A program made the translations under genes and the position numbers. The notes beneath the pieces were generated by a model. The model worked only from the letters and a program-made list of their open reading frames with translations. It did no database searches and had not been told where the DNA came from. Below, piece by piece: positions 4,928 to 47,365 of a DNA stretch of 64,000 nt. The stretch comes from Clostridiales bacterium (GTDB taxonomy: Bacteria; Bacillota; Clostridia; TANB77; CAG-508): positions 10,286-74,285 of the forward strand of contig DPDV01000013.1 in the NCBI GenBank assembly GCA_003534295.1, in the 5' to 3' direction. Each line of letters opens with the position of its first letter. The stretch's first letter is position 1.

Positions 4928-5121
4928 TTTAGAGAAAAAATAAAAATATTATAATTCAATGAAAGAACTTTGATATGTTAGATAAAACTAATAAAAAACA
5001 TTTCAAAATTCTTTCATTGTTTTTCTAAAAAAATAAAATATAATGGTATTATGAAAATGAAGAGGTCTAAAAACGGACTTCTTCATTTTTATTTTTTTAA
5101 AAAATGAAGGAGGTTGCAAAT

Positions 5122-6333
5122 ATGAAAAGAAAAATTATAGCAAAAGTAATTATGATGTTTGGTATTGTATTACTATTAACAATTAATTCATCAAATATTG
5201 CAAAAGCAGATACTACAACAATACAGTATGATGGAAAAATAACATATGGATCTTCAACGGTTGGCTCATTCTATGTTGATGGAAAAAGGGCTTTTTGTAT
5301 GGATCATAGTAAGCTAAGTCCATCTAGTGGTACTGTAGCTGAAACTAGCATATATTCAGATTCAAATGTGGTAAAATGCTTGTATTATGGTTGGGAAGGT
5401 GTTGAAGTCTGGTCAGGATTTAACGGTAATAGTAATTATGGTATAGTCGCTACAACTTTAGCATTAGATCACTATGTAAATGGAAGCAATAAGACTGTAG
5501 CAAAAGATTTTATTGCATTTTTAGATTCAGCTCCAATACCAAAAGAATCATTAGAATTTACTACAAAAGATCTTGAAGCTAAAATTCAAGATGGAAAACA
5601 AGTAACAGAACAAACTACAGTTATGGGAACAACAGGAATAACTTTAAAATTTGATATACCAAATGATGTTACTATTGTATGTGACAGTGGTAATTGGTCA
5701 AAAACAGGAGGTACAGTGGAAGTTAGTAATGGAGATTTAATTCATTTTGAAGCTCCAATTACAAAGACAGGTACTTGGTCATCTTCACAAATACCAAACT
5801 CATATATATTAAATGCAATATTAGCTCAAACAAGTGATTCAGGATTACAAAGATTAGTAAGACTTGGGAAAAAAGATCCTACAACATATACAAGTATATC
5901 TATTAATTTTATAAGTACAGGTGCTTTTGAAATCCACAAAACAGATAGTGAAACTGGTAATGGGATAAAAGATACTGTGTATACTGTAAAAAATTTTTCA
6001 GGAGAGCTAGTTGGAAAAATTAAAACAGATGAAAATGGATATGGAACTTTAGAAGGATTATATGCAGGCAACTATACTTTAAATGAAGAAAATTCAAATG
6101 AAAATTATATAAAGGCAACAAGTGATGTAAATAGTGAGATTACAGCAGGAGAAACAACAAAATTGGAATTAACTAATGAGCATAAAAAAGGAAACTTAAA
6201 GATATACAAAGTAGATAAAGATAACAATAGAGTTGTACTTGGAAATGTGCAATTTGACCTATATTCAGAGGAGCTACAAAAAGTTATTGGAACATATACA
6301 ACTGACGTAAATTGTAATAAATTTTACTTGTAA
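5122..6333 (+). pseudogene. Secreted surface adhesin (possible thioester-type N-domain plus Cna-B/SpaA repeats), 3'-truncated by an IS remnant
   Basis: Signal peptide MKRKIIAKVIMMFGIVLLLTINSSNIAKA. RAFCMDH and GLQRLV could form a Cys/Gln thioester pair. There is a clear Cna-B repeat (FEIHKTDSETGNGIKDTVYTV...TDENGYGTLEGLYAGNYTLNE). The second repeat stops at GTYTTD (about 6306) and continues into IS-derived sequence. No LPXTG motif is present. Confidence 0.6.
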
Positions 6334-8455: not shown

Positions 8456-10034
8456 ATGAAAGTAGTTGGATATTGTAGATTAAGTAGAGATGAGGATAAA
8501 GAAAATTATGCAAGCATAGAGGAACAAAAAATTATACTACAAGATTATGCTATGTCTAGAGGTTGGAAAATATTAGACCGTGATTTTTATATAGATGATA
8601 ATTTTTCAGGTTATACACTAGATAGACCAAAATTTTCAAAAATGTTAAGAAAGGTGCAAAGAGGAGATATAGATGTTGTTTTAGCAAAAGACCTTTCTAG
8701 AATTGGAAGAAATAATGGAAAAGTATTAGTATTAATTGATGAGTTCAAAGCTATGCAGAAAAATTTAATTTTAGTATCAGAAATGGGAGGGTGTTATGAT
8801 GTTCTAAATGATAGGGATGACACTATTGGTATTACAACTTGGTATAATGAAAGATATGTAAAAGATTGTTCAAAGAAAACAAGAGATCATATGCTTTCAA
8901 AACAAAAAACAGGTAGATTAATAATGGGAAATTACTATGGTTATGTGAAAGATCCAGATGACATTACAAAATTGACTGTTGATGAAGAAATAAGACCTGT
9001 AATTGAATTAGTTTTTAAATTATATATAGATGGAAATGGAATGAAAAAAATAAGTAATATACTGAATGAAAACTATAATTATCCAACGCCATCAGTATAT
9101 TATCAAAAAAAACATTTACAAAGAGGTCGTATATACAAACACCCAGTTCAAGAGTTATGGTCAGATTATATGATAAAGAACATCATAGGTAATGATGTGT
9201 ACTGTGGAACATTAAGAACTCATAAAAAGAAAACAATCTCGATTAGAGGAAAAGCTATAAAATTGCCTGAAAGTGAGCATTTTGTTTTTGAGAATCATCA
9301 TGAGGCTATAGTTTCAAAAGAGACCTTTCAATCAGCAAATGACATAAGAAATCGAAGAGCAACAATGAATCGTCAATGTGGTAAACCTAAAAGAAATTAT
9401 TTCTTTGGAGGATTATGCAGGTGCGCTGAGTGTGGTATGTCAGCATCTGGAATGGTACTTAGGAGAAAAAATAACGCTAAGGCTTATGAATGTAATGATT
9501 ATAAGAAATATGGAACTAAAAGATGTAAAGGACATGAAATTCTTGAAGAAGATATGTGGTTTCAATTTAAAGATTTTTTAAAGAATACTAAAAAAGTTTA
9601 TTTAGATGAAATAAAAAAAATCAATGTACAAAATAAAAAGAAGAAAATGCAGTCCAATAGAAAGAAAATACAGCTCGAACTAGAACAAGCTAATTTAGAA
9701 TACAAAATGATTCTAACTCAGAAAATAAAAGATATAGCTACTCGGACAGAACCCAGAGCAAAATCAAATTATAGTTGATACATATAATAAATTAGAGCAA
9801 GAAAAAATGAATACTATTATTAAATTACAAAAGACACTAGAAAAAGAAGAAGAGGAAATAATTAATGAAAAATTAGAAGAAATTCATACAGCAATAGATT
9901 ATTTTGACGAAATAATCAAAGCAAAAGAGCCAAATAGAGCAATACTAGAAGCTTTAATTGATACAGTATGGATAAATCACGACAAATCTGTAAGATTTGA
10001 CTTAAAACCAGATATTAAATCATTAATTTTATAA
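8456..10034 (+). pseudogene. Large serine recombinase, reading frame broken at in-frame CGG 9743-9745
   Basis: Catalytic N-terminus GYCRLSRDED and a zinc ribbon (CRCAECG...YECNDYKKYGTKRCKGH). The 0-frame stops at 9776-9778. Skipping C9743 gives GQNPEQNQIIVDTYNKLEQEKMNT..., colinear with the intact paralog at 24904..26469 to the shared end KPDIK.LI. Confidence 0.8.
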
Positions 10035-12546: not shown

Positions 12547-13725
12547 ATGGGATTTATTAAAGCATTTACAGGAGCATTAGGAGGAACATTTGCGGATCAA
12601 TGGAAGGATTTTATTGTACCAAGAAGTGATGTGCCAGCAACAGCAGCAATTTTTGGAGCTGAAAGAAGAGGAACAGATAGTGGAAGAGGATCAAATACAA
12701 AAGGATCAGAAAACATAATAACAAATGGAAGTAAAATAGTAGTACCTGAAGGAACAGCATTACTTACATTCCAAGACGGAGCAATAACAGGATGCGTAAC
12801 AGAACCAGGTGGCTTTATATATTCATCAGATGATCAAAATTCACAATCATTTTTAGCAGGAGATGGATTCTTTTCATCAACCCTAAAAACATCTTGGGAG
12901 AGATTTAAATTTGGTGGAACACCAGGTGGAGAACAAACTGTTATATATGTAAATCTAAAAGAAATACCAGGAAATAGATTTGGAACACAAGCTGAAATTT
13001 ATTGGGATGATGCGTTTTTAGGAACACAGGTTGGAGCTATAACAAGAGGAACATATACAATGAAAATAGTAGATCCAATACTATTTGCAAAAAACTTTGT
13101 TCCAATGGAATATTTAAGACCAGGTGCAGAAGTATTTGATTTTGCTGATATGGATAATCCAGCAGGTGAACAACTATTTAATGAAGTAGTAGGAAGCTTA
13201 TCAGCAGCATTTTCAAACTACACAAATGACCCAAGTAGAGGAAATCGTATATCAAAAATACAAGGAGATCAAATAGGATTTGCTCAAAGTTTATCACAAG
13301 CAGTAGAAGAAGGATATACTTGGAAATCTGGAAGAGGATTAGAAATAGTAAAAGTTGCAATAACAGCAATTGAATATGATGAAGACACGAAGAAACTATT
13401 AAGCGATGTAAAAAAGGCAGATGCTCTATCAGGAGCAAGAGGAAATTCATTTATGCAACAATCAGTTGCTCGTGGTTTCCAAGCAGCTGGAGAAAATGGT
13501 GGAGGAGCTGGAATGGCATTTATGGGAATGGGCATGAATGCTGCTGGAAATGTTATGGGAGGATTCCAACAACCAGTTTACCAACAACCTCAACAGCCTC
13601 AACAACAAACACAACAACAAGAAGATCCTTATGAAAAATTAGCAAAATTAAAAAAACTATTAGATGATGGAGTTATTTCTCAAGAAGAATTTGATGAAGC
13701 AAAGAAAAAACTTTTGGGGGTTTAA
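12547..13725 (+). CDS. SPFH-like (YdjI/virion-core-protein-like) protein with C-terminal SHOCT domain
   Basis: N-terminus MGFIKAFTGALGGTFADQWKDFI, a Q/P-rich linker (QQPVYQQPQQPQQQTQQQ), and a SHOCT-like tail YEKLAKLKKLLDDGVISQEEFDEAKKKLLG. Confidence 0.6.
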   Translation: MGFIKAFTGALGGTFADQWKDFIVPRSDVPATAAIFGAERRGTDSGRGSNTKGSENIITNGSKIVVPEGTALLTFQDGAITGCVTEPGGFIYSSDDQNSQSFLAGDGFFSSTLKTSWERFKFGGTPGGEQTVIYVNLKEIPGNRFGTQAEIYWDDAFLGTQVGAITRGTYTMKIVDPILFAKNFVPMEYLRPGAEVFDFADMDNPAGEQLFNEVVGSLSAAFSNYTNDPSRGNRISKIQGDQIGFAQSLSQAVEEGYTWKSGRGLEIVKVAITAIEYDEDTKKLLSDVKKADALSGARGNSFMQQSVARGFQAAGENGGGAGMAFMGMGMNAAGNVMGGFQQPVYQQPQQPQQQTQQQEDPYEKLAKLKKLLDDGVISQEEFDEAKKKLLGV

Positions 13726-17180: not shown

Positions 17181-17365
17181 TCAAAATTATCCAATGAATA
17201 ATTTTGACAGGATAAATGAGTTTGTGGTATTATATGAATTAGAAAAATAGTAATTTGTTGAAATGGAGGATTGATTATGAAAAAATTAAAAATATGAATA
17301 TTATTAATTATATTAGGAAACTTATTATATTTAGCTTATATATTTTTTTGTAAAGAGGTGTGAAT

Positions 17366-36430: not shown

Positions 36431-36802
36431 ATGAATTACATATTTGACAATGAAAGACCAATTTATATTCAGTTAGTTGAGATAATAAGAATAGAAATAG
36501 TTTCTGGTAAATTCAAAAAAGGACAAAGAATGCCTTCTGTAAGAGAGCTAGCACTTATAATGAAGGTTAATCCAAACACAATGCAAAAAGCATTGGCTGA
36601 ACTTGAGAATGAACAGTTAATTTATACAGAAAGAACAAATGGAAAATATGTAACAGAAGATGAAGAATTGATTGAAAAAATAAAAAGAAAATTGGCAAAA
36701 GAAATAATTGATAATTATCTTAATAATATGAAAAAAATCGGCATAGATTATAACTCAGCTGTAAAATACTTGCAAGAAGGAGGAAAAGATGGAATTAGTT
36801 AA
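36431..36802 (+). CDS. GntR-family (YtrA-type) transcriptional regulator
   Basis: Winged-helix motif LPSVRELALIMKVNPNTMQKALAELE, with the short size typical of the YtrA subfamily. Confidence 0.8.
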   Translation: MNYIFDNERPIYIQLVEIIRIEIVSGKFKKGQRMPSVRELALIMKVNPNTMQKALAELENEQLIYTERTNGKYVTEDEELIEKIKRKLAKEIIDNYLNNMKKIGIDYNSAVKYLQEGGKDGIS

Positions 36803-37484
36803 ATGTAATAATTTGTGCAAAAAATTTGATGACAAGCAAGTTTTAAACAATATAAATTTAAGTATTCCAAAAGGAAAAATTATAGGTTTACTTGGGAAAA
36901 ATGGAATGGGGAAAACAACTTTAATAAAATTGATTAATGATTTATTAACTCCTACAAGTGGCGAGGTGCTTATAAATGGTGAAAAACCAGGTGTAAACTC
37001 TAAGAAAATTATTTCATATTTACCAGAGAGAACATATCTTGATAAAAATATGAATGTTTCACAAATAATAACTTTTTTTAATGAATTTTATGATAATTTT
37101 AATGAAGAGAAAGCGATTAAGCTATTAAAAGATTTAGATTTAGATATAAATTTAAAAATAAATAAAATGTCAAAAGGAATGCAAGAGAAATTACAACTAA
37201 TATTAGTTATGAGCAGAGAGGCAGAATTATATATATTAGATGAGCCATTAGGTGGAGTTGATCCAGCGACTAGAGATTATATTTTAGATACAATTCTTTT
37301 AAACTTTAACGAAGGAGCAAGCTTAATTATATCTACTCATATAATTAGTGATGTTGAAAGAATATTAGATGATGTCATTTTTATTGATAAGGGAGAAATT
37401 ATATTAACATCATCAGCAGATGAGCTAAGAAAAAAAGAAAGTGCATCAATAGACGAAATATTTAGGAGGTGCTTTAAATGTTAG
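36789..37484 (+). CDS. ABC transporter ATP-binding protein
   Basis: Walker A GKNGMGKTT, signature MSKGMQEKL, Walker B LYILDEP. Confidence 0.85.
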   Translation: MELVKCNNLCKKFDDKQVLNNINLSIPKGKIIGLLGKNGMGKTTLIKLINDLLTPTSGEVLINGEKPGVNSKKIISYLPERTYLDKNMNVSQIITFFNEFYDNFNEEKAIKLLKDLDLDINLKINKMSKGMQEKLQLILVMSREAELYILDEPLGGVDPATRDYILDTILLNFNEGASLIISTHIISDVERILDDVIFIDKGEIILTSSADELRKKESASIDEIFRRCFKC

Positions 37485-38266
37485 GTAAATTATTAAAATA
37501 TGATTTGAAATGGTGCTTTAAACCTTTATTAGTATTTTATATGTTAGCGATTTTCTTTTCAATAATAGTAAGAATTGTTGAAAGTTTTGAACAAAGCTTG
37601 ATAATATTGATAATTGACAAGGTATGCTGTGGTATTGTTATTGCAATGCTAGTAAACATATTAATAAATTGCTTTATGAGAAATTGGGCAAGATTTGTAA
37701 AAAATATATATAAAGATGAAGCATACTTGACACACACACTTCCTATAAGCAAAAGTGAAATCTACTTATCAAAAATTCTAACAGCTATTATAACATTGCT
37801 TACTTCATTTGTTGTTGTAGTTATTTGTCTAGCTATTAGTTGCCTAAATAAGGAAACATGTGTTATGTTAAAAGAGTCCTTAGAACAATCAGCAATATAT
37901 TTGAATAGTTCAGTATTTAGTTTAATACTTGTAATGGTTATTACATTATTCTTTGAGTGTTTGTTTATGATGATGAGTGGAATATTAGGACTTATAATAG
38001 GACATAGAAGCAATAATTCGAAAATAATTAAGTCTATAATAATAGGATTTGCAATATATAGTTTATTGTCAGCGATATCACTAGGAATATTATTTATGGC
38101 AGGTGTGATAAATCCAGAAATAATGTCATTATTTAACAATGTTAATGTAAATTCAGAAGGACTTAAGGGCATGATGTTAGTTGGAATATTAGTATATGCT
38201 ATATACAACGTGGGAATTTATTATTCAGGAAATAAATTTTTAAATAAAGGAGTAAATATAGATTAA
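37478..38266 (+). CDS. ABC-2-type membrane permease
   Basis: A polytopic membrane protein whose start overlaps the end of the ATPase gene. Confidence 0.6.
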   Translation: MLGKLLKYDLKWCFKPLLVFYMLAIFFSIIVRIVESFEQSLIILIIDKVCCGIVIAMLVNILINCFMRNWARFVKNIYKDEAYLTHTLPISKSEIYLSKILTAIITLLTSFVVVVICLAISCLNKETCVMLKESLEQSAIYLNSSVFSLILVMVITLFFECLFMMMSGILGLIIGHRSNNSKIIKSIIIGFAIYSLLSAISLGILFMAGVINPEIMSLFNNVNVNSEGLKGMMLVGILVYAIYNVGIYYSGNKFLNKGVNID

Positions 38267-38273
38267 AATTAAG

Positions 38274-38356
38274 TGGTACCGATGGTGGGACTCGAACCCA
38301 CATGGTTTCCCGCCAGATTTTGAGTCTGGTGCGTCTGCCAATTCCGCCACATCGGC
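38274..38356 (-). tRNA. tRNA-Leu (anticodon CAA), CCA encoded
   Basis: The reverse complement folds as a cloverleaf: acceptor GCCGATG/CATCGGT, anticodon stem CCAGA/TCTGG with loop CTCAAAA, a long variable arm, T-arm GGGTTCGAGTCCC, and 3' CCA. Confidence 0.85.
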
Positions 38357-39271: not shown

Positions 39272-41518
39272 ATGCTTAAAATATTAAAAAACCTAAAAGA
39301 ATCACTAATCTCAGTAATAATTATAGTGATTTTGCTATGTTTGCAAGCAGGTACAGACTTAGCATTACCAGATTATACATCTAAAATAGTTAATATTGGA
39401 ATACAACAAGGGGGAATACAAAATGTTTCTCCAGAAGCAATACGAAAAGAGCAAATGGAAAATTTATTACTATTTTCAACAGATGATGAAAAAATATTAA
39501 ATTGTTATACTCTAATTTCTAAAAAAGAAATGGAGGATAAAGAGTATGAAAAATATTTAAAACAATATCCAGAATTAGAAAATCAAGATATTTATGTACT
39601 TAATAATTTAAAGAAAGAACAGAAAGAAGAACTTGATACATTAATAGCAAAACCATTAATGATAATATATAGTATAAGTAATGAAGAAACAGCCAAAGAG
39701 ATCAAAAAGAATATTCTACAGAACACACCTAAAGCACAACAAAGCATACTAGAACAAGCAGATTTGCTAACAATAATTAAAAATATGCCAGAAGAAACAA
39801 GGAATAATATTTTGGAAGAAAGTAGCAAAATGATAGACGAGAAATTTGGCAATATGACAGAACAAGTTGCAATACAAGCTACAAAGCAAGAATATGCCCA
39901 AATAGGGATGGACTTAGATAAAATACAAAATGATTATATACTATTTACAGGTATGCAGATGTTAGGAATAGCATTAATAAGTATGATTGCAGCAATAATA
40001 ATAATGTATTTATCATCGAGAGTTGCAGCTAAGTTAGGACAAAACCTAAGAAATAAGGTTTTCAAAAAGGTTTTAGGCTTTTCCATAGAGGAATTTAAGG
40101 CGTTTTCTACAGCATCACTAATAACACGTAGCACAAATGATATACAGCAAATTCAAAATTTAATTGCAATGTTATTTAGAGTAGTAGTATATGCGCCAAT
40201 AGTAGGTATAGGCGGTTTTATAAGGGTATTAAATAACAGCCATACTTCAATGGCTTGGATAATAGGTTTGGCAATTTTATGTATATTAGGAATAATATTA
40301 ACATTATTTATTATAGCAATGCCAAAATTCAAGAAACTACAAGAGCTTGTTGACCGTTTAAATTTAGTTGCAAGAGAAATACTAACTGGTTTGCCAGTAA
40401 TTAGAGCGTTTAATACAGAAAAGAAAGAAGAAAAAAGGTTTGAAGATGCAAATAAAATATTAATGAAAACTAATATATTTGTTAATAAGGCTATGAGTTT
40501 AATGATGCCAGCATTAATGTTTGTTATGAATTCAGTGGCTTTACTAATTATATGGGTAGGAGGACATAATGTAGCAAATGGAAATATACAAGTTGGAGAT
40601 ATGATGGCGTTTATACAATATACAATGCAAATTGTAATAAGTTTTTTAGTTATTTCTATGATATCTATAATGATACCTCGTGCTCAGGTTTCTGCTAATC
40701 GTATAAATGAAATTTTAGAAAAAGAGCCAAGAATAAAAGATAATGAGAATACAAAAAAATTTGACAACAGTAAGAAAGGATTGGTTGAATTTAAAAATGT
40801 TTCATTTAGATATCCAGATGCAGATGCAGAAATATTAACAGATATTAATTTTACAGCAGAACCGGGAAAAACTACGGCAATAATAGGAAGTACAGGTAGT
40901 GGAAAATCTACTATTGTAAATTTAATACCAAGATTTTATGATGTAACTGGTGGAGAACTATTAATAGACGGAGTTAATATAAAAGATGTACCTCAACATG
41001 AATTGAGAAAAAGAATAGGTTTTGTTCCACAAAAAGGCTTACTATTTTCTGGAACAATAGAATCAAATATAAAATATGGAAATCCTAAAATGTCTGACAA
41101 ACAGATGAAAGAAGCTGCAGAAATAGCACAGGCAACAGAATTTATAGAAGCAAAGCCAGAAAAATATAAATCAGAGATAGCACAAGGCGGAACAAACGTG
41201 TCTGGTGGGCAAAAACAGCGTTTATCAATAGCAAGAGCGATTGCAATAGACCCAGAAATATTTGTTTTTGATGACAGTTTTTCAGCATTAGATTTAAAAA
41301 CTGATAGTAAATTAAGAGCAGCATTAGCAGAAAAAACTAAAAACAAAACTGTAATTATAGTTGCGCAAAGAGTAAGCACAATACTAAATGCTGACCAAAT
41401 TGTGGTGCTAGAAGAGGGAAAAATTGTAGGAATAGGAAAGCATCAAGAGCTTATGAAAAATTGTGATACATATTCACAGATAGCATTATCACAGCTTTCA
41501 AAGGAGGAGCTAGAATAA
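39272..41518 (+). CDS. ABC exporter, fused permease/ATPase subunit with an enlarged extracytoplasmic loop
   Basis: GSTGSGKST, VSGGQKQR, IFVFDDS. An insert of about 190 aa lies between TM1 and TM2. Confidence 0.85.
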   Translation: MLKILKNLKESLISVIIIVILLCLQAGTDLALPDYTSKIVNIGIQQGGIQNVSPEAIRKEQMENLLLFSTDDEKILNCYTLISKKEMEDKEYEKYLKQYPELENQDIYVLNNLKKEQKEELDTLIAKPLMIIYSISNEETAKEIKKNILQNTPKAQQSILEQADLLTIIKNMPEETRNNILEESSKMIDEKFGNMTEQVAIQATKQEYAQIGMDLDKIQNDYILFTGMQMLGIALISMIAAIIIMYLSSRVAAKLGQNLRNKVFKKVLGFSIEEFKAFSTASLITRSTNDIQQIQNLIAMLFRVVVYAPIVGIGGFIRVLNNSHTSMAWIIGLAILCILGIILTLFIIAMPKFKKLQELVDRLNLVAREILTGLPVIRAFNTEKKEEKRFEDANKILMKTNIFVNKAMSLMMPALMFVMNSVALLIIWVGGHNVANGNIQVGDMMAFIQYTMQIVISFLVISMISIMIPRAQVSANRINEILEKEPRIKDNENTKKFDNSKKGLVEFKNVSFRYPDADAEILTDINFTAEPGKTTAIIGSTGSGKSTIVNLIPRFYDVTGGELLIDGVNIKDVPQHELRKRIGFVPQKGLLFSGTIESNIKYGNPKMSDKQMKEAAEIAQATEFIEAKPEKYKSEIAQGGTNVSGGQKQRLSIARAIAIDPEIFVFDDSFSALDLKTDSKLRAALAEKTKNKTVIIVAQRVSTILNADQIVVLEEGKIVGIGKHQELMKNCDTYSQIALSQLSKEELE

Positions 41519-41519
41519 T

Positions 41520-43361
41520 ATGAGTAATCAAACAAAAAAGCCTCCAATGGGAGGTATGGGACCAGGAAAAGGACCAATGACAATAGAAAAAGCAAAAGAC
41601 TTTAAAGGGACTACAAATAAATTGATAAAAAACTACTTATCTAAATATAAAATTGCAGTGGTTATAGTAATGATATTTGCAATTGGAGGTACAATTTTCT
41701 CAATTGTAGGACCAAAAATATTGGGAAACGCAACAACAGAAATATATAATGGATTAATAAGTAAATTATCAGGAGGAGAAGGAATTAATTTTCAAAAAAT
41801 TGCAGAAATTCTTCTAACATTATTAACATTGTATTTGATTAGCATGGTATTCTCTGCAGTGCAGGGATTTACAATGACAGGAGTGGCACAAAAAATAACA
41901 TATAAAATGCGCAATGAGTTAATAGAAAAAATTAATAAACTTCCTATGAAATATTTTGATAAAAAAACAAATGGAGAAGTATTATCAATAATATCAAACG
42001 ATGTAGATACATTATCTCAAAATTTGAACCAATGTGTTACGCAAATAATAACAGCTATTTGCACATTAATAGGAATATTAATAATGATGTTTTCTATTAG
42101 CTGGCAAATGACTATTACGTCTTTGATAATACTACCAATTGCAGCATTTTTAGTTAAAACAATAGTATCTAAGTCGCAAAAATACTTTAAAGCTCAACAA
42201 GATTATTTAGGACATGTAAATGGACAGGTAGAGGAAATTTATGGAGGACACACTGTTGTAAAAGCATTCAACAGTGAAGATGTAGTAATAAACAAATTTG
42301 AAGAAGCAAGTGAGGAGTTATATAAATCTGGTTGGAAATCTCAATTTCTATCTGGACTAATACATCCGGTAACCAACTTTATAAGTAATGTTGGATATGT
42401 GGCAGTAGCAATACTAGGTGGATATTTTGCTATACAAGGCAAAATAACAGTAGGAAATATTCAGTCTTTTATACAGTATAATAAGCAATTTACTCAACCA
42501 ATAAATCAAATAGCCCAAGTTTCTGGAATGTTACAAGCCATGGTAGCGGCAGCGGAGAGAGTGTTTGAATTTTTGGAGGAACCAGAAGAAATAAAAACTA
42601 TTGCGAATCCTAAAAGTACAAAAGATATAGAAGGCAATGTGGAATTTGAACATGTTCATTTTGGCTATGATGAGGATAAAATAATAATAAATGATTTTAA
42701 TGCAGATATAAAAGCTGGACAAAAAATAGCAATTGTAGGTCCAACAGGGGCAGGAAAAACGACAATAGTTAAGCTTTTAATGAGATTTTATGATGTGAAC
42801 AGTGGAGCAATATTGCTTGATGGAACAAATATAAAGAAGTTTGATAGAGGAAAACTAAGACAGGTATTTGGAATGGTTTTACAGGATACATGGCTATTTA
42901 ATGGAACGGTTAAGGATAATATCAAATATGGAAAAGAAGATGCAACAGATACAGAAATAATAGAGGCCGCTAAAGCTGCACATGTACACCACTTTATAAA
43001 AACATTGCCTAAAGGATATGATGCACTAATAGATGAAGAGTCAAGTAATATTTCAGCAGGTCAAAAGCAATTATTAACAATAGCAAGGGTTATTTTAACA
43101 GATCCTAAAATATTGATACTGGACGAAGCTACAAGTTCTATAGACACAAGAACAGAACAACAAATACAATCAGCAATGGATAATTTAATGAAAGGTAGAA
43201 CAAGCTTTATAATAGCACATAGATTATCTACAATAAAAAATGCAGATTTGATACTTGTAATGGATCAAGGAGATATTGTAGAACAAGGAACGCATGAAGA
43301 ATTATTAAAAAAGAACGGTGCATATGCAAAATTGTATAATTCACAATTTGAAGAAAACTAA
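41520..43361 (+). CDS. ABC exporter, fused permease/ATPase subunit (heterodimer partner)
   Basis: GPTGAGKTT, ISAGQKQL, ILILDEAT. Confidence 0.85.
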   Translation: MSNQTKKPPMGGMGPGKGPMTIEKAKDFKGTTNKLIKNYLSKYKIAVVIVMIFAIGGTIFSIVGPKILGNATTEIYNGLISKLSGGEGINFQKIAEILLTLLTLYLISMVFSAVQGFTMTGVAQKITYKMRNELIEKINKLPMKYFDKKTNGEVLSIISNDVDTLSQNLNQCVTQIITAICTLIGILIMMFSISWQMTITSLIILPIAAFLVKTIVSKSQKYFKAQQDYLGHVNGQVEEIYGGHTVVKAFNSEDVVINKFEEASEELYKSGWKSQFLSGLIHPVTNFISNVGYVAVAILGGYFAIQGKITVGNIQSFIQYNKQFTQPINQIAQVSGMLQAMVAAAERVFEFLEEPEEIKTIANPKSTKDIEGNVEFEHVHFGYDEDKIIINDFNADIKAGQKIAIVGPTGAGKTTIVKLLMRFYDVNSGAILLDGTNIKKFDRGKLRQVFGMVLQDTWLFNGTVKDNIKYGKEDATDTEIIEAAKAAHVHHFIKTLPKGYDALIDEESSNISAGQKQLLTIARVILTDPKILILDEATSSIDTRTEQQIQSAMDNLMKGRTSFIIAHRLSTIKNADLILVMDQGDIVEQGTHEELLKKNGAYAKLYNSQFEEN

Positions 43362-43374
43362 CAAACGAAATAAA

Positions 43375-43408
43375 TTAACCTGAGCGGTTTTAGCCACTCA
43401 GGTTAATT
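43375..43408. terminator. Bidirectional terminator between the convergent ABC and XRE genes
   Basis: AACCTGAGCGG-TTTTA-GCCACTCAGGTT hairpin. Confidence 0.5.
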
Positions 43409-43720
43409 TATACTTTTAATAAAAACTGCTAATTTTTTTAAAGTCTCACAACCAAGTTCTATTTCTTCATTACTAAAAGATTCTAATATTTTACTAGTTT
43501 CCGATTTTATATTATTATTTTTGCCAAACAAAATATAATCAGCACTGGTATTGGTTAAATCACAAAGTCTTTTTAACTTTTCAATGGATAAGCAACTTTT
43601 CCCACGTTCAACAATTCCTAGATATTGACCAGAGATACCAAGTAATTTAGAAAATTCTTCTTTTGACATATTCATATTTTCACGTATATTTTTTATTCTT
43701 AAACCAATTTGCTTTTTCAT
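43403..43720 (-). CDS. XRE-family HTH regulator
   Basis: Cro/C1-type HTH: MSKEEFSKLLGISGQYLGIVERGKSCLSIEKLKRL. Confidence 0.75.
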   Translation of the reverse strand: MKKQIGLRIKNIRENMNMSKEEFSKLLGISGQYLGIVERGKSCLSIEKLKRLCDLTNTSADYILFGKNNNIKSETSKILESFSNEEIELGCETLKKLAVFIKSIN

Positions 43721-43869
43721 AAAAAACCTCACAAAATTAATATCAAATTAATTCTAAAATTATAAACAAATTATAAAATGACAAAAAACAATACATATTA
43801 GTGGAAAAAAATGAAAAAATATGATAATATATGAAAAAACAAGAGGTATTTATTTTTATGGAGAATAAA

Positions 43870-44646
43870 ATGAAATTATTATTAGTGGAAGATGATGTTA
43901 ATACTTGTGAAATATTTAAGAAAATTGAAAGAGCAAAAAGTGAGATAAAATTTATTGCAATAACAAACTCGGAAGTAGAAGCGTTAAACTGTGTAAAAAA
44001 TAATATGCCAGACGGTATTATATTAGATCTAGAATTAACAAATGGAAAAGGTAGTGGATTTGGATTTCTAAAAGAGTTAAGGAAAATTAAGTTAAAAATA
44101 TTGCCTAAAATAATAGTAACTACAAACATATGCACAGACTCTGTTTATGATTATTTACATGATAATAAAGTTGATTTTATATTTTATAAAAAACAGGAAG
44201 GTTATTCGGAAGAAAGCGTAATAGATACATTACTATTGTTAAATGGGTATACAGATAATATAAGCTACACTGAAAATACTAAACACAATGAATCAAATGA
44301 TGATAAAGAAATATTGGAAGAAATTGACAAAGAACTTGATTTGATAGGAGTAGGAACTCATTTACAAGGCAGAAAGTATTTACATGACTCTATATATTAT
44401 GCAATAATGCAAGAAAATAATGAAAGCAAAATATCAATAATACAATATTTAGGTGGTAAATATAAAAGGTCTACAAGTACTATAAGCAGAGCAATGCAGA
44501 ATGCAATACTTTATGCTTGGCGAATATCTGCAATAGAAGATTTAACCACATATTACACAGCAAAAATTAATTATGAAACAGGAGTACCAACACCAACTGA
44601 ATTTATATATTATTATGCCAATAAAATAAAGAAAAAGATGATCTAA
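43870..44646 (+). CDS. Response regulator with Spo0A-type C-terminal DNA-binding domain (Spo0A paralog)
   Basis: Receiver domain (KLLLVEDD...GIILDLEL). The C-domain is colinear with Spo0A_C: IGVGTHLQGRKYLHDSIYYAI...STSTISRAMQNAILYAWRIS...GVPTPTEFIYYYANKI. It is not in the usual spoIVB-spo0A context. Confidence 0.7.
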   Translation: MKLLLVEDDVNTCEIFKKIERAKSEIKFIAITNSEVEALNCVKNNMPDGIILDLELTNGKGSGFGFLKELRKIKLKILPKIIVTTNICTDSVYDYLHDNKVDFIFYKKQEGYSEESVIDTLLLLNGYTDNISYTENTKHNESNDDKEILEEIDKELDLIGVGTHLQGRKYLHDSIYYAIMQENNESKISIIQYLGGKYKRSTSTISRAMQNAILYAWRISAIEDLTTYYTAKINYETGVPTPTEFIYYYANKIKKKMI

Positions 44647-44866
44647 AAAGCGCCACAATGCATTGCATTGTGGCAAAATTCAAATATTACTTGGTAGATG
44701 AAAGAAAGTATGTCTACAAAGTGACAAAATGTCACAAAAAGTAACAATCGCTAAATGACAAAAATCAGATTTAATCAAATAATTGAATCACTACTGTTCA
44801 CTTATATAAATGAATATAAGTGATATTTTTTTATTGTAAAAAATAAAAAAATAGGTGGTGATATGA

Positions 44867-44908
44867 ATGGATTTCTGGGAATGGTTAAGATATTGGTTAG
44901 GATTATAA
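44867..44908 (+). CDS. 13-codon Trp-rich micro-ORF (MDFWEWLRYWLGL), candidate signalling peptide
   Basis: The ATG lies 8 nt after AGGTGG. The ORF is flanked by hairpins at 44800-44830 upstream and 44916-44946 plus a T-run downstream. An overlapping 20-codon alternative runs 44863..44925. Confidence 0.3.
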   Translation: MDFWEWLRYWLGL

Positions 44909-44983
44909 AAATACAAGAGAAGTAAAAAAATATTGATTACTTCTCTTTTTTTATTTATAATATAGTCATATTTAATTATTAAG

Positions 44984-46465
44984 GTGAGAAAAGTGAAAAT
45001 TGATTTATTAAATACACTTATAAAAATGTTCTTTCTATTAAACTATACAAGCTATATATATGCTAGGATTATGAATAAAAACTATAGTAAAAAAACATGT
45101 GCTTTGATATTTATTATTAATTTCTTTTTAAGTGCTTTAAACCTTCTAATGAAGAGTTATTTTAAAACAAATGAAGTAATGATTATAATAATTATATTAT
45201 CTGCCATAATAATAAATCAAATAAGTACTGAGAAAATTAGACCTTCAGCGATTTTACTGGCTTTTGCGGTATGTATAATGTCATTAGTTATTTCTGTGAC
45301 TGCTATTTTTCCATTACAAAATATATTAAATAGGGTAAATAATGCCAAAATAGTTATGATGATTTTAATGGTGGTAATACAAGGACTAACAATTTGTGTA
45401 CTTTTCAGAATTAAAAGATTTAATAAAGGGCTGGCTTTTATTAAGGAAAAAATCAATAATGAGTATATAGACATAATAACTATAAACATAAGTATTGCTG
45501 TGATATTTGTATACACCTTATTTGGCAATTATTATGGCAATTTGACAAGGCATATTTTGATTTCATTTATTATTTTAGGTACTATTATGTTTGTTATGAT
45601 TCAAAAAACATTGGTTTTATATTATAAGCAAAAGTTATTGGAAAAAACAATGGCAGATTATGAAAATGAAATTAAACAAAAGGATGAGAAAATAAAAGTT
45701 CTTTCAGAGGAAAAGTTTAAGATTAGCAAAATTAATCATGAATTCTATAATAGACAAAAAGCATTAGAGATGACAGTAAATGACTTTATAAATAATACAA
45801 ATATGGAAGTTGGAAGGGAACTAGCTATTACGAACAAAATAAATAGTTTATCAAAAGAATATTCTAATAAAATGAAATCAATAAAACAAGTGGAAAAGCT
45901 ATCGCTTACAGGAATAGAAGAAATTGATGAAATGTTTAAATATATGCAAATTGAATGTATAAAAAATAATATTGATTTTAAGCTAAAAATAGAAGGAAAT
46001 GTATATCCATTAGTTAATAATATTATAGAAAAGGATAGATTAGTAACTTTAATTGGGGATCATTTAAAAGATGCAATAATAGCAATAAATTTTAGTAAAA
46101 ATAAGTTTAAAAGTATTATAGCAATATTGGGTATAAAAAATAACTGTTATGAATTTTGCATATGTGATACAGGTATAGAATTTCAAATAGAAACATTGTT
46201 AAAATTAGGATTGGAACCTGTAACAACACACAAAGAAACTGGCGGTACAGGCATTGGATTTATATCTACATTTGAAACACTAAAAAAGTGTAATGCTAGT
46301 CTAATAATAGATGAAAAACATGAAGAAAGTAACAATGATTATACTAAATCAGTTACAATAAAATTTGATGGGAAGAGCCAATATATAATAAAATCATATA
46401 GAGCAGATAAAATAAAAGATAAAGCAGAAGATGATAGAATAATAATAAAAAGGAATGATAATTAG
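44984..46465 (+). CDS. AgrC-like polytopic sensor histidine kinase (GHKL ATPase)
   Basis: About six N-terminal TM helices, H-box KINHEFYNRQ, DTG and GGTGIGF ATP-lid motifs. The start could instead be the GTG at 44993. Confidence 0.7.
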   Translation: MRKVKIDLLNTLIKMFFLLNYTSYIYARIMNKNYSKKTCALIFIINFFLSALNLLMKSYFKTNEVMIIIIILSAIIINQISTEKIRPSAILLAFAVCIMSLVISVTAIFPLQNILNRVNNAKIVMMILMVVIQGLTICVLFRIKRFNKGLAFIKEKINNEYIDIITINISIAVIFVYTLFGNYYGNLTRHILISFIILGTIMFVMIQKTLVLYYKQKLLEKTMADYENEIKQKDEKIKVLSEEKFKISKINHEFYNRQKALEMTVNDFINNTNMEVGRELAITNKINSLSKEYSNKMKSIKQVEKLSLTGIEEIDEMFKYMQIECIKNNIDFKLKIEGNVYPLVNNIIEKDRLVTLIGDHLKDAIIAINFSKNKFKSIIAILGIKNNCYEFCICDTGIEFQIETLLKLGLEPVTTHKETGGTGIGFISTFETLKKCNASLIIDEKHEESNNDYTKSVTIKFDGKSQYIIKSYRADKIKDKAEDDRIIIKRNDN

Positions 46466-47365
46466 ATGAACAAATTACCCGATTTTTTTATGGAAAGATT
46501 ATATAAAGAATATAACGAAGAGCAAGCTAATCAAATAATAGAAGGCTATAAGTTAGAAAGAAAACTTACTTTTAGAGTTAATACAATAAAAACAACAGCA
46601 GAAGAAATTGAACAGAGGCTAGTTGAAAATGGAATAATGTATAAAAAAGTAAAATGGAGTAAAGAGGCTTTTATAATACTTAATAGAAATGAAGAAGAGA
46701 TACAAAAATTAGAAATGTATAAAAATGGAGAAATATATTTACAAAGTTTGTCATCTATGTTGCCACCAATAATTTTAAATCCTACAGAAAAAACAGATAT
46801 TTTAGACATGACTTCAGCGCCAGGAGGAAAAACCACACAAATAGCAGCACTTACTAATAACAATGCAAATATAACAGCCTGCGAAATGAGTAATATACGA
46901 GCGGAGAGACTAAAATACAATCTAGAAAAGCAAGGAGCTCTAGCATATGTTATGGTAAAAGATGCAAGAAATATAGATAAATTTTTCTCTTTTGATCAAA
47001 TACTTCTAGATAGCCCATGTAGTGGAAGTGGTACTATAAATATGAATAATACAGATTTGAATAAGTATTTTACATTAGAGCTTGTTGAAAAATGCAAAAA
47101 AACACAAAGAAGTTTAATAAATAAAGCAGTACAAATATTAAAAGGTGGCAAAGAATTGGTATATTCAACGTGTTCAATATTAAAAGAAGAAAATGAAGAA
47201 ATAGTAAAAACAATAATGAATAAAGGAATGGAAATTGTTCCAATTGAATTTGAAGGTAAGGAAACATTACCACAATTACCAACAACAATAGATGGAACTT
47301 TATGCATATGTCCAACACAAGAATATGAAGGATTTTTTATTGCTAAATTAAGAAAAATATGTTAA
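46466..47365 (+). CDS. RsmB/RsmF-family RNA m5C methyltransferase
   Basis: SAM motif SAPGGKTT. Catalytic motifs DSPCSGSGT and YSTCS. Confidence 0.8.
   Translation: MNKLPDFFMERLYKEYNEEQANQIIEGYKLERKLTFRVNTIKTTAEEIEQRLVENGIMYKKVKWSKEAFIILNRNEEEIQKLEMYKNGEIYLQSLSSMLPPIILNPTEKTDILDMTSAPGGKTTQIAALTNNNANITACEMSNIRAERLKYNLEKQGALAYVMVKDARNIDKFFSFDQILLDSPCSGSGTINMNNTDLNKYFTLELVEKCKKTQRSLINKAVQILKGGKELVYSTCSILKEENEEIVKTIMNKGMEIVPIEFEGKETLPQLPTTIDGTLCICPTQEYEGFFIAKLRKIC

Follow-up and report, generated by a model that had tools for sequence, protein, structure and literature searches.

The traits of peptide signalling systems of the ComCDE type are well established: a helical linear peptide, a kinase without an extracellular domain, repeat boxes, and the existence of pherotypes. 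The agr system controls the phenol-soluble modulin (PSM) and delta-toxin peptides. In other systems, such as Rgg/SHP and ComR/ComS, the peptides are very short and hydrophobic, some of them contain Trp, and they are encoded beside a regulator of the XRE family, with the exporters encoded elsewhere. In Bacillus subtilis, the expression of sinI depends on Spo0A, and SinI relieves the repression exerted by SinR, a protein of about 111 amino acids. MgrB and SafA have 47 to 65 amino acids and a transmembrane (TM) helix; they are not encoded beside the kinase and are not known to show allele co-variation. The locus considered here lies in a stretch of 64,000 nucleotides, called the window below, from contig DPDV01000013.1 of a Clostridiales bacterium (assembly GCA_003534295.1, positions 10,286 to 74,285 of the forward strand). 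It consists of a gene for an XRE-family regulator (xre), a divergent response regulator gene (rr), an open reading frame (ORF) of 13 codons, referred to as the micro-ORF or peptide gene (pep), and the gene of a membrane histidine kinase (hk). The layout of this module is xre <- / rr -> / pep -> / hk ->.

A sequence-only reading of the window had proposed these genes as a peptide-signalling cassette, and the whole arrangement that it described is present in the sequence. It is probable that the peptide acts on the kinase in one way or another. The more specific reading that we prefer, at a little short of an even chance, is that an autoinducing linear peptide is sensed by a new family of kinases and signals through a Spo0A-like regulator. 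What carries this reading is a conserved module with a real peptide gene and intact catalytic residues, and a mosaic of alleles in which peptide and sensor types are perfectly linked.

The peptide gene and its conserved partners

Loci for comparison came from three sources: contigs encoding homologues of the kinase, a set of genomes scanned at one per species, and metagenomes scanned for a DNA pattern. The species scan yielded 63 loci, all of them from uncultured gut Clostridia, including Clostridium sp. CAG:245, CAG:780 and 28_12. The amino-acid conservation in syntenic loci that the sequence-only reading had named as the check on its micro-ORF was borne out, with a homologous ORF of 12 to 18 codons directly upstream of the kinase gene in 56 of the 63 species-level loci. 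In the remaining seven, the kinase lies within 420 nucleotides of the start of the contig, and the upstream sequence is cut off. A layout repeated with one ORF family in 56 species-level loci goes far beyond what chance would produce.

The micro-ORF is preceded, as had been claimed, by a good Shine-Dalgarno (SD) sequence, AGGTGGTGA. In an alignment of 48 species, the SD motif GG(T/A)GGTG is nearly invariant (positions G..GGTG are invariant), and across the loci the peptide ORF starts 4 to 8 nucleotides after it. Among 20 distinct nucleotide versions of a 12-codon core, the entropy at codon positions 1, 2 and 3 is 8.5, 6.0 and 11.3, respectively. The synonymous share of codon differences is 31% in frame versus 14% and 11% in the shifted frames, and Ser alternates between AGY and TCA codons. 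Conservation in the 56 loci and this coding-type codon variation indicate that the micro-ORF is a real gene. No annotation lists it, and standard gene callers overlook it. An overlapping frame of 20 codons (MNGFLG...), put forward earlier as an alternative, is not conserved: its ATG is missing in contig L001, and its C-terminus differs in contig L004.

The encoded peptide has three Trp residues (TGG at codons 4, 6 and 10) rather than the four first counted. Peptides of the window clade follow the pattern M-[STD]-[FIL]-W-[ED]-W-[LI]-x-Y-x-x-G-L, with an extra S/T-W-D/E-E at the N-terminus of the longer forms, and those of a distant clade, whose kinases are 35-45% identical, include MSWWEELADWIKKWLP and MREWYQAFLMWISHWMG. 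In the 58 distinct peptides, Trp makes up 19.6% of the residues. Their hydrophobic moment has its maximum at 100 degrees per residue and, in 95% of them, lies above the average for shuffled versions of the same peptide. Charge is spread unevenly, from -1.6 in the acidic N-terminal half to +0.9 in the basic C-terminal half, and the peptides as a whole are net neutral to anionic; the set has no conserved Cys or Pro and no leader. These properties suggest short amphipathic, Trp-rich helices that are too short to span a membrane. In some loci, diverged peptide genes stand in tandem before a single kinase gene, two of them in L048 and three in L050.

Clustering all ORFs of 64 loci against each other left only three recurring protein families, namely the kinase (64 loci), the XRE protein (53), and a regulator with a receiver (REC) and a Spo0A_C domain (47). 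The flanking genes vary between genera, and the RsmF, CmpB and RNase H neighbours are seen only in the window genus. A pair of fused ATP-binding cassette (ABC) exporter genes, each joining a transmembrane domain to a nucleotide-binding domain, lies directly upstream at 39272-43361 in the window species (also in L004 and L068). The pair is not considered part of the module, because genes for PHP, AAA_28 and glycosyltransferase proteins take its place in the sister species; it is also absent from the other genera. The earlier statement that there is no AgrB holds well beyond the window, as none is linked in the 64 loci. No account of a module of XRE protein, regulator, peptide and kinase was found in the literature. 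The agr-like small-protein family of Sberro et al. (10.1101/494179) was considered and is a separate system, since it has AgrB.

The kinase gene most likely starts at GTG 44993 and not at 44984 as first read, because AGGTGAG lies 4 nucleotides upstream of this GTG and an identical database protein (P0001) has 490 amino acids. Its stop codon TAG abuts, as had been pointed out, the ATG at 46466 of a gene for an RsmB/F-type methyltransferase (Pfam 3.6e-44). An AlphaFold2 model of the kinase (mean confidence, pLDDT, 66.9) has seven helices from residue 2 to about residue 205, followed by a long helix and then an alpha/beta domain. The loops between the TM helices have 4-8 residues, except for one longer, positively charged loop after TM5. 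The last TM helix joins the DHp domain by a continuous helix, and an extracellular domain is absent, so that the model predicts a sensor entirely embedded in the membrane. Of the earlier description as a six-TM GHKL kinase, the GHKL architecture stands, while the number of TM helices in the model is about seven, not six.

The place of this protein among histidine kinases is less straightforward. Membership in the AgrC type, which had also been suggested, was rejected on model scores, and only the general architecture agrees: against the NCBIfam AgrC model, the window kinase has an E value of 8e-4 and 18.6 bits compared to a cut-off of 500, and 3 of 33 relatives match. The window kinase has no match to any Pfam family at E<0.01 and none to HATPase_c_5, and the Pfam family HATPase_c matches 32 of the 33 members weakly (best 3e-4). 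A sequence profile of the kinase found nothing significant in the PDB, AgrC included. With the cytoplasmic part of the model, Foldseek finds the histidine kinase cores of AgrC (6e95), DesK, HK853 and YycG at E values of about 1e-4 to 5e-3. The phospho-acceptor His, part of the motif SK-x-[NS]-H-[EST]-[FLI] on the long helix that follows the TM segments, is invariant in 57 of 57 members, and the G1 (D[ST]G[IV]EF) and G2 (GG[TSN]G[IM]GF) motifs are invariant as well. The Asn of the N-box, which normally binds Mg2+, is Asp in the window clade (GDHL[KR]DAI, residues 355-361, positions 46055-46075) and Asn in the distant-clade kinases. Taken together, the sequences point to an uncharacterised family of histidine kinases that has kept its catalytic residues.

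In an alignment of the family, the cytoplasmic part is highly conserved, TM6-TM7 are conserved, and TM1-TM5 are hypervariable. A family profile run against 1.84 billion cluster representatives found 1352 proteins at E<=1e-3 and 1068 at E<=1e-10, with more than 1000 clusters at 50% identity. The family therefore appears to be discrete, with no merging into generic kinases. Its named members are all called "hypothetical protein" and come from metagenome-assembled genomes (MAGs) of Clostridia, and one member is indexed in 771 blocks of a contig collection (481 contigs in the protein table). Neither 50,697 phage records nor IMG/VR contigs nor the PADLOC models of defence systems gave a match to the kinase. 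In two MAGs, the kinase frame is split in two (L040 3583-5053 and L049 1804-3241), and a long contig, L102, has homopolymer indels in both the peptide and the kinase gene; such genes are either pseudogenes or the product of sequencing errors. A loss of the peptide in L040 and L049 was also considered and is wrong, for both carry an intact peptide ORF.

The response regulator has a receiver and a Spo0A-type C-terminal domain, as the sequence-only reading had it (Pfam Response_reg 5.3e-8 and Spo0A_C 2.5e-15), and the C-terminal domain aligns to the Spo0A structure 1fc3 in the PDB at an E value of 3.9e-7. The acidic pocket, Thr and Lys of the receiver are present. The phospho-acceptor Asp, aligned to D56 of Spo0A and numbered Asp57 in the window regulator, is kept in 47 of 47 regulators, and every one of the 47 linked regulators has a Spo0A_C output domain and not LytTR. 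The protein is probably a Spo0A-like paralogue rather than the canonical Spo0A, because its score against NCBIfam TIGR02875 is 90.8 bits, with an equivalog cut-off of 200, its identity to B. subtilis Spo0A is 21%, and its recognition helix differs. This helix is STISRAMQNAIL in the window and its clade (STISRAMQNAI) and NTITNGIQNAII in the distant clade (NTITNGIQNAI), compared to the conserved Spo0A form SRVERAIRHAIE (SRVERAIRHAI). The gene also lies outside the usual spo0A neighbourhood, as had been remarked, and adjoins a dedicated kinase and a peptide gene. Seven unannotated phage contigs from human faeces, MT835718 and MT836727 among them, encode Spo0A_C-type proteins that resemble the regulator at a distance (about 21-30% identity), chiefly in its Spo0A-type C-terminal domain. 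One relative (L014) encodes a SleB/CwlJ-type hydrolase at the locus (Pfam Hydrolase_2 5.6e-18), a weak hint that the lineage forms spores.

The XRE gene is a core part of the module, with a homologue divergent from the regulator or the peptide gene in 53 of 64 loci. The divergent gene noted earlier is thus present, but its role as a mere neighbour does not hold. The proteins of this family have 105-120 amino acids, made up of a helix-turn-helix (HTH) domain and about 40 further residues; for the start of the window gene, it is of help that gene callers report 105 amino acids in relatives. Only HTH families are matched in Pfam (HTH_3, E 1.4e-12), and neither a SinI/SinR domain nor a TPR peptide-binding domain, as found in the RRNPP family, was seen. 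In the PDB, the matches are to generic HTH_3 proteins such as C.BclI and PezA, and SinR is not among them at E<0.01. Kinship with SinR was accordingly rejected for want of sequence support in Pfam and the PDB.

The two intergenic regions hold several candidate regulatory elements. The 12-mer AAATGACAAAAA occurs only twice in the 64 kb, at 43776-43787 between xre and rr and at 44753-44764 before the micro-ORF, against 0.39 occurrences expected by chance, and box-like words common to both regions are found in several other species. The shared 12-mer could be an operator. The tandem boxes before the micro-ORF are candidate binding sites of the regulator; the first two form a palindrome, GTGACAAAATGTCAC, and in the second allele of the window species (allele B) paired transitions keep the palindrome intact. 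A tandem word with a 10-bp period stands at the equivalent place in 41 of 51 loci, a raw count without a background rate. The exact 0A-box consensus, TTCGNCA/TGNCGAA, is found upstream of the peptide gene in 15 of the 51 loci. There are 24 such 0A boxes in 4131 nucleotides versus about 1.2 expected (background 0.023 per 81 nucleotides, taken from the loci), a roughly 20-fold enrichment.

Two hairpins had been placed 3' of the regulator gene, and both are there. One, directly after the regulator stop, is likely its terminator (it was scored on the minus strand in the scan, and the same palindrome lies 3' of the rr stop on the plus strand). The other, hairpin 1, belongs to the leader of the micro-ORF. 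Over 48 species, 86.8% of its cells are paired versus at most 48% with slid partners, compensatory changes affect 7 of its 12 pairs, and none of 500 shuffles attains the observed covariation. Hairpin 2 forms between the U tract behind hairpin 1 and an A tract that runs up to the SD. It is found in most loci of the close clade, where C:G or G:C pairs at shifting positions preserve the pairing. The T run after hairpin 1 as a plain terminator tail was rejected, because it pairs with the downstream A tract with covariation. Hairpin 1 could be either a stabiliser or an attenuator; no Rfam covariance model comes near its gathering score in 43300-45100. In the distant clade, a TATTAT or TATCAC element stands 3 nucleotides before hairpin 1, and the window clade has no convincing conserved -10 element for a peptide promoter. 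The terminator-like hairpin described after the micro-ORF is also present, with a T run behind it, and has an equivalent in most loci, the stem sequences differing. Within the 3' arm of this terminator, TTGATTAC recurs across species, with TATAAT about 17 nucleotides later. The simplest reading of these elements is that the peptide transcript is small and monocistronic, with boxes before the gene and hairpins in the 5' leader, and that the kinase is transcribed separately.

Alleles of the peptide and the kinase sensor

The main argument that the peptide works with the kinase sensor is the mosaic of alleles in which peptide and sensor types are linked. The window and contig L004 are from the same species, and their XRE and regulator proteins are 100% identical. 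Their DNA is 99.3% identical up to 44908, the end of the micro-ORF stop, and 99.6% identical from 45470, at about kinase residue 159, but no alignment is possible over the 561 nucleotides between these flanks. The differences in the micro-ORF are concentrated in codons 2-10 (F3I, L7I and W10V). In a second species, there are three alleles, with the peptides MSFEEIMEWLRYVFGL, MDIWEWIRYVLGL and MDIWEWIRFIMGL, and a third species also has three, with MSLWEWLRYLLGDRF, MSFWEWLRYVLGNGSHR and MSFWEWLRYILGDNGHK. Counting the two of the window species, every sensor allele comes with its own peptide variant. In all three species, the divergent block starts within the micro-ORF and ends at kinase residue 80-160, and the surrounding DNA is about 99% identical. 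In the clearest pairs (L001/L073, L075/L077 and L076/L077), identity is lost at the micro-ORF or within it and returns at kinase residue 80-140. Of the other pairs, L074/L073 can be aligned through the micro-ORF, and L001/L074 and L075/L076 throughout, at lower identity.

The linkage is also seen at the population level. The metagenome scan gave 21 contigs of the window species, of which 13 combine peptide B with sensor B and 7 combine peptide A with sensor A; one A contig has homopolymer indels. None of the 20 typed contigs is a recombinant of peptide and sensor, and the two alleles occur at comparable frequency. Types can even be shared between species. For example, the peptide MDIWEWIRYVLGL is identical in allele B of the window species and in one allele of the second species, and the sensors of the species that share it are 61% identical, compared to 26% for the sensors of the two window-species alleles. 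By analogy, the hypervariable block agrees with the pattern of pherotypes in agr, comCD and comQXP.

Metagenome contigs of the window species often end inside the cassette (L071, L072), which leaves truncated kinase calls (P0004-P0016, 433 amino acids); the assemblies break there because of strain-level polymorphism. Allele B also has an extra GC-rich hairpin, GTAGGGGCGATTTTAATCGCCC, between the peptide gene and the terminator (L004 4874-4897; also L068-L070). A very similar element, GTAGGGGCGAATTGCATTCGCCC, lies upstream of the kinase in another species (L016, about 27-50), and this element may be a small mobile repeat.

Possible modes of action

If the preferred reading is right, the 13-residue peptide would be made from its own small, strongly translated transcript with a structured 5' leader, a consensus SD and its own terminator, and its release would need no dedicated processing enzyme. 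Being an amphipathic helix rich in Trp, the peptide would partition into the membrane interface and bind the TM1-5 sensor of the adjacent 7-TM kinase. The kinase would autophosphorylate at His249 and pass the phosphate to Asp57 of the regulator, whose Spo0A-type domain would bind the boxes with the 10-bp period upstream of the peptide gene and probably the xre/rr promoter region too. The result would be autoinduction and the control of a regulon, with the small XRE protein as a co-regulator, most likely a repressor that sets the threshold. Allelic pairs of peptide and sensor would act as pherotypes. What we infer in this scheme is that the peptide is secreted and binds the kinase, that phosphate passes to the regulator, that the regulator binds DNA, and that the XRE protein acts as stated. 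A further-reaching version is somewhat less likely than not: the unprocessed product of 12-18 residues, a Trp-rich amphipathic helix with no maturation or export gene of its own, would be a leaderless quorum-sensing pheromone that a hitherto unrecognised family of 7-TM kinases reads out through a Spo0A-type domain instead of LytTR, and its pherotypes would be balanced and shared among abundant uncultured Clostridia of the human gut.

A number of observations weigh against signalling of this kind. No family of exporters, proteases or modification enzymes is linked to the module across the 64 loci. Seven loci have no regulator between the XRE and peptide genes (L047, L049, L060, L061, L063, L064 and L067), and the XRE protein of these regulator-less loci has an N-terminal extension of about 15 residues. 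The boxes in the window are degenerate, and they differ between the alleles despite an identical regulator. The recognition helix is unlike that of Spo0A even in clades whose boxes fit the 0A consensus. Hairpin 1 with its U tract could be a terminator ahead of the peptide gene. The peptide core is far more conserved than the sensor domain. In partial Mantel tests across species, the peptide follows phylogeny (partial r 0.25-0.28 with the XRE protein and the regulator) and not specifically the sensor (r about 0.09, p 0.02-0.06). The sensors are close to saturation, however, and the kinase core controls poorly for phylogeny, so that we regard this result as uninformative. Within a species, co-segregation could come from physical linkage alone, since the peptide and kinase genes are adjacent and linkage would keep the types together. 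The earlier suggestion of a pheromone or membrane-peptide input into a sporulation-type regulator is supported in part: the co-segregation in three species fits a peptide input to the kinase, but linkage alone could also account for it.

Several other explanations for the micro-ORF could be considered. That it is a chance ORF in a conserved non-coding regulatory region is scarcely credible, even though it is very short and unannotated, as the ATG, frame, stop and invariant SD are kept in 56 loci, Ser switches between AGY and TCA, third positions are the most variable and the other two frames are unconserved. It is highly improbable that translation of the micro-ORF, or stalling on it, controls the following hairpin and hence read-through into the kinase, in the manner of a regulatory leader peptide. 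The C-terminal residues are conserved as in arrest peptides, and the hairpin begins at most 10 nucleotides from the stop in about 23 of 57 loci, the window included (4 nucleotides). Nevertheless, this gap ranges from 1 to more than 80 nucleotides, even within a species (4 in the window, 85 in L004), and the kinase has a promoter-like site within the hairpin and 3' of it. The helical amphipathic periodicity, the tandem copies and the kinase as the sole downstream gene do not fit an attenuator either. The peptide might instead be an output, that is, a surfactant, toxin or interference peptide secreted under two-component control while the kinase senses something else. A leaderless amphipathic helix with a strong SD, its own transcript and regulator-type boxes upstream, present in tandem copies in some genomes, would suit such an effector. 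By analogy with known effectors, however, we hold this to be very unlikely, given that peptides of 12-18 residues that are net neutral to anionic are shorter than PSMs and unlike the cationic Trp-rich antimicrobials, and that the strict place directly before the kinase in every locus, together with a variable block common to both, speaks for an interaction with the sensor.

The partner of the peptide could also be the XRE protein, with the peptide serving as an anti-repressor in the way of SinI: the Spo0A-like regulator would induce the peptide, which would bind the XRE protein in the cytoplasm and lift repression. This analogy draws on the constancy of the XRE protein, which only the kinase surpasses (it is present in 53 of 64 loci, and the 7 loci without a regulator have it as well), on its length near that of SinR, and on the resemblance of the boxes before the peptide gene to 0A boxes. 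The peptides also have a D/E-x-E-W-x-x-L flavour, which we take to be akin to the SinI/SinR helix. Peptide similarity tracks the C-terminal region of the XRE protein (partial r 0.28), but it tracks the HTH domain and the regulator just as closely. The two alleles of the window species, however, come with peptides that differ at 3 of 13 residues and with XRE proteins that are 97-100% identical, no SinI/SinR domain is found in Pfam and no SinR in the PDB at E<0.01, and the variable block of peptide and kinase sensor is left unexplained, all of which makes an anti-repressor quite unlikely. A cell-autonomous feedback is the likeliest of these other explanations, although we still regard it as unlikely. 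Here the peptide, induced by the regulator, would stay in the producing cell at the inner face of the membrane and modulate its own kinase, following the logic of MgrB and PhoQ, and cells would not signal to one another. The lack of an exporter or leader, the candidate regulator boxes upstream of the peptide gene, and an amphipathic character that would seek the membrane interface are all in keeping with this, and the adjacency of the kinase and the co-segregation with the sensor fit it equally well. A private interaction, on the other hand, gives no obvious cause for two to three balanced divergent alleles or for the sharing of types across species, and peptides of 12-18 residues are too short to span the membrane as the known kinase-modulating small proteins do.

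Neighbouring features and known systems

Positions of the module features (in the window unless a locus is named)
Feature	Position	Strand	Remarks
XRE-family regulator gene	43403-43720	minus	likely ATG 43720, 105 amino acids; ORF extends to GTG 43732
Divergent xre/rr promoter region	43721-43869		holds the 12-mer AAATGACAAAAA at 43776-43787
Response regulator gene, receiver and Spo0A_C	43870-44646	plus	258 amino acids; ORF opens at 43831, likely start 43870
GC-rich hairpin, likely rr terminator	44651-44675		11 pairs, 6 of them GC; directly after the regulator stop
Tandem boxes with 10-bp period	44721-44764	plus	GTGACAA/GTCACAA/GTAACAA (44721-44747) and AAATGACAAAAA
Hairpin 1, leader of the micro-ORF (TCACTTATA...TATAAGTGA)	44798-44823	plus	covariation, RNAfold
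Hairpin 2	44824-44853	plus	U tract after hairpin 1 with A tract ending at the SD; RNAfold
Shine-Dalgarno sequence AGGTGGTGA	44853-44861	plus	3' end 5 nucleotides before the micro-ORF ATG
Micro-ORF MDFWEWLRYWLGL	ATG 44867 to TAA 44908	plus	13 codons and stop; homologues, coding signature
Hypervariable allele cassette	44872-45469	plus	variable peptide codons, terminator/promoter spacer, kinase TM 1-5
Terminator-like hairpin and T run	44915-44953 (hairpin 44915-44947)	plus	3' of the micro-ORF; RNAfold
Sigma-A-type promoter-like site, kinase	44933-44961	plus	TTGATT-17-TATAAT, 10 of 12 positions; overlaps the terminator 3' arm
Polytopic sensor histidine kinase gene	44993-46465	plus	490 amino acids, about 7 TM, DHp with His249 (45737-45739), GHKL domain
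Tandem peptide copies	L048 13-57, 238-291; L050 3088, 3201, 3492		

Some features around the module deserve a brief mention. At 43370-43411, where the ABC exporter and XRE genes converge, a hairpin with an 18-bp stem has the appearance of a terminator for both directions. Further upstream, an operon-like group at 36431-38356, consisting of a GntR regulator, an ABC ATPase and a protein of 262 amino acids without a Pfam match, stops at a tRNA-Leu(caa) gene that is read from the other strand. Two large serine recombinases (Resolvase, Recombinase and Zn_ribbon_recom domains) are encoded at 8456-9778 and 24904-26469. They flank a region with a SHOCT-domain protein and a P-type ATPase, just downstream of a surface protein with SpaA/thioester domains, and the coordinates 5104-6333, 12547-13725 and 17360-19456 are given with this region as well. 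It is probably one or two integrated mobile elements. In other genomes, a NUDIX hydrolase gene often lies 3' of the kinase in the subgroup without a regulator, and in L061 a gene of 404 amino acids sits between the peptide gene and the kinase.

The significance of the module would lie in several directions. If the preferred reading is true, the peptide would be a new class of signal in Gram-positive communication, with the shortest gene-encoded precursor known and no leader or linked processing gene, and the module would add a family of kinases that is new, as well as the first case in which the Spo0A DNA-binding domain serves signalling other than the control of sporulation. The module is common in uncultured low-GC gut Clostridia, whose behaviour is scarcely known, and two or three alleles per species offer natural material for comparing peptide specificity. 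There are practical consequences, too. The variable cassette disrupts metagenome assembly, and surveys of MAGs that use spo0A or Spo0A_C as a marker of sporulation (e.g., PMC11536998) may miscount the paralogue of the module.

Among the systems already described, the RRNPP family is alike in having a very short hydrophobic peptide gene near an XRE-family gene. The XRE protein of the module, however, has no TPR and only 105 amino acids in total, and the partner with sensor-like variability is the membrane kinase. MgrB-PhoQ and SafA-PhoQ offer a parallel in the form of a tiny, unannotated product, which here is predicted to act on a kinase and to be controlled by that kinase's regulator. The SinI/SinR system with Spo0A in B. 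subtilis has in common with the module a small XRE gene (105-120 amino acids), a gene for a helical peptide and a Spo0A-type box. In contrast, the peptide of the module is one short helix of 13-18 amino acids compared to 57 for SinI, the peptide but not the XRE protein is allele-variable, and a kinase belongs to the unit. With Spo0A itself, the regulator shares the architecture of a receiver and Spo0A_C with a phosphorylatable Asp, as well as tandem boxes at 10 bp, some of them TGNCGAA; it differs in its recognition helix, its gene neighbourhood and a score below the cut-off.

The module would operate most like the ComCDE/Blp/Pln systems and agr, yet departs from each in its defining features. 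In common with agr, it has a polytopic sensor kinase, a hypervariable peptide gene and sensor half between near-identical flanks, and types that cross species, but it is without AgrB, a ring-forming conserved Cys/Ser, a precursor of about 46 residues, and a LytTR regulator. The kinase model agrees with AgrC and HPK10 in having a polytopic sensor of 6-7 TM joined directly to DHp. The likeness to ComC/ComD/ComE with CSP (competence-stimulating peptide), BlpC and plantaricin A begins with a linear peptide, predicted to form an amphipathic helix, beside a polytopic kinase and a regulator. It extends to direct-repeat boxes before the peptide gene and to alleles of peptide and sensor that co-vary within species. 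The module nonetheless has no double-glycine leader and no ABC exporter of the ComAB type with a C39 peptidase at the locus, and its product has just 12-18 residues. Its kinase is not matched by the HPK10, HATPase_c_5 and AgrC models, its output is of the Spo0A type instead of LytTR, and an XRE regulator is an extra constant member. In short, the scheme of a peptide, a kinase and a regulator is familiar, the class of peptide and the family of kinases are new, and the output domain is unexpected.

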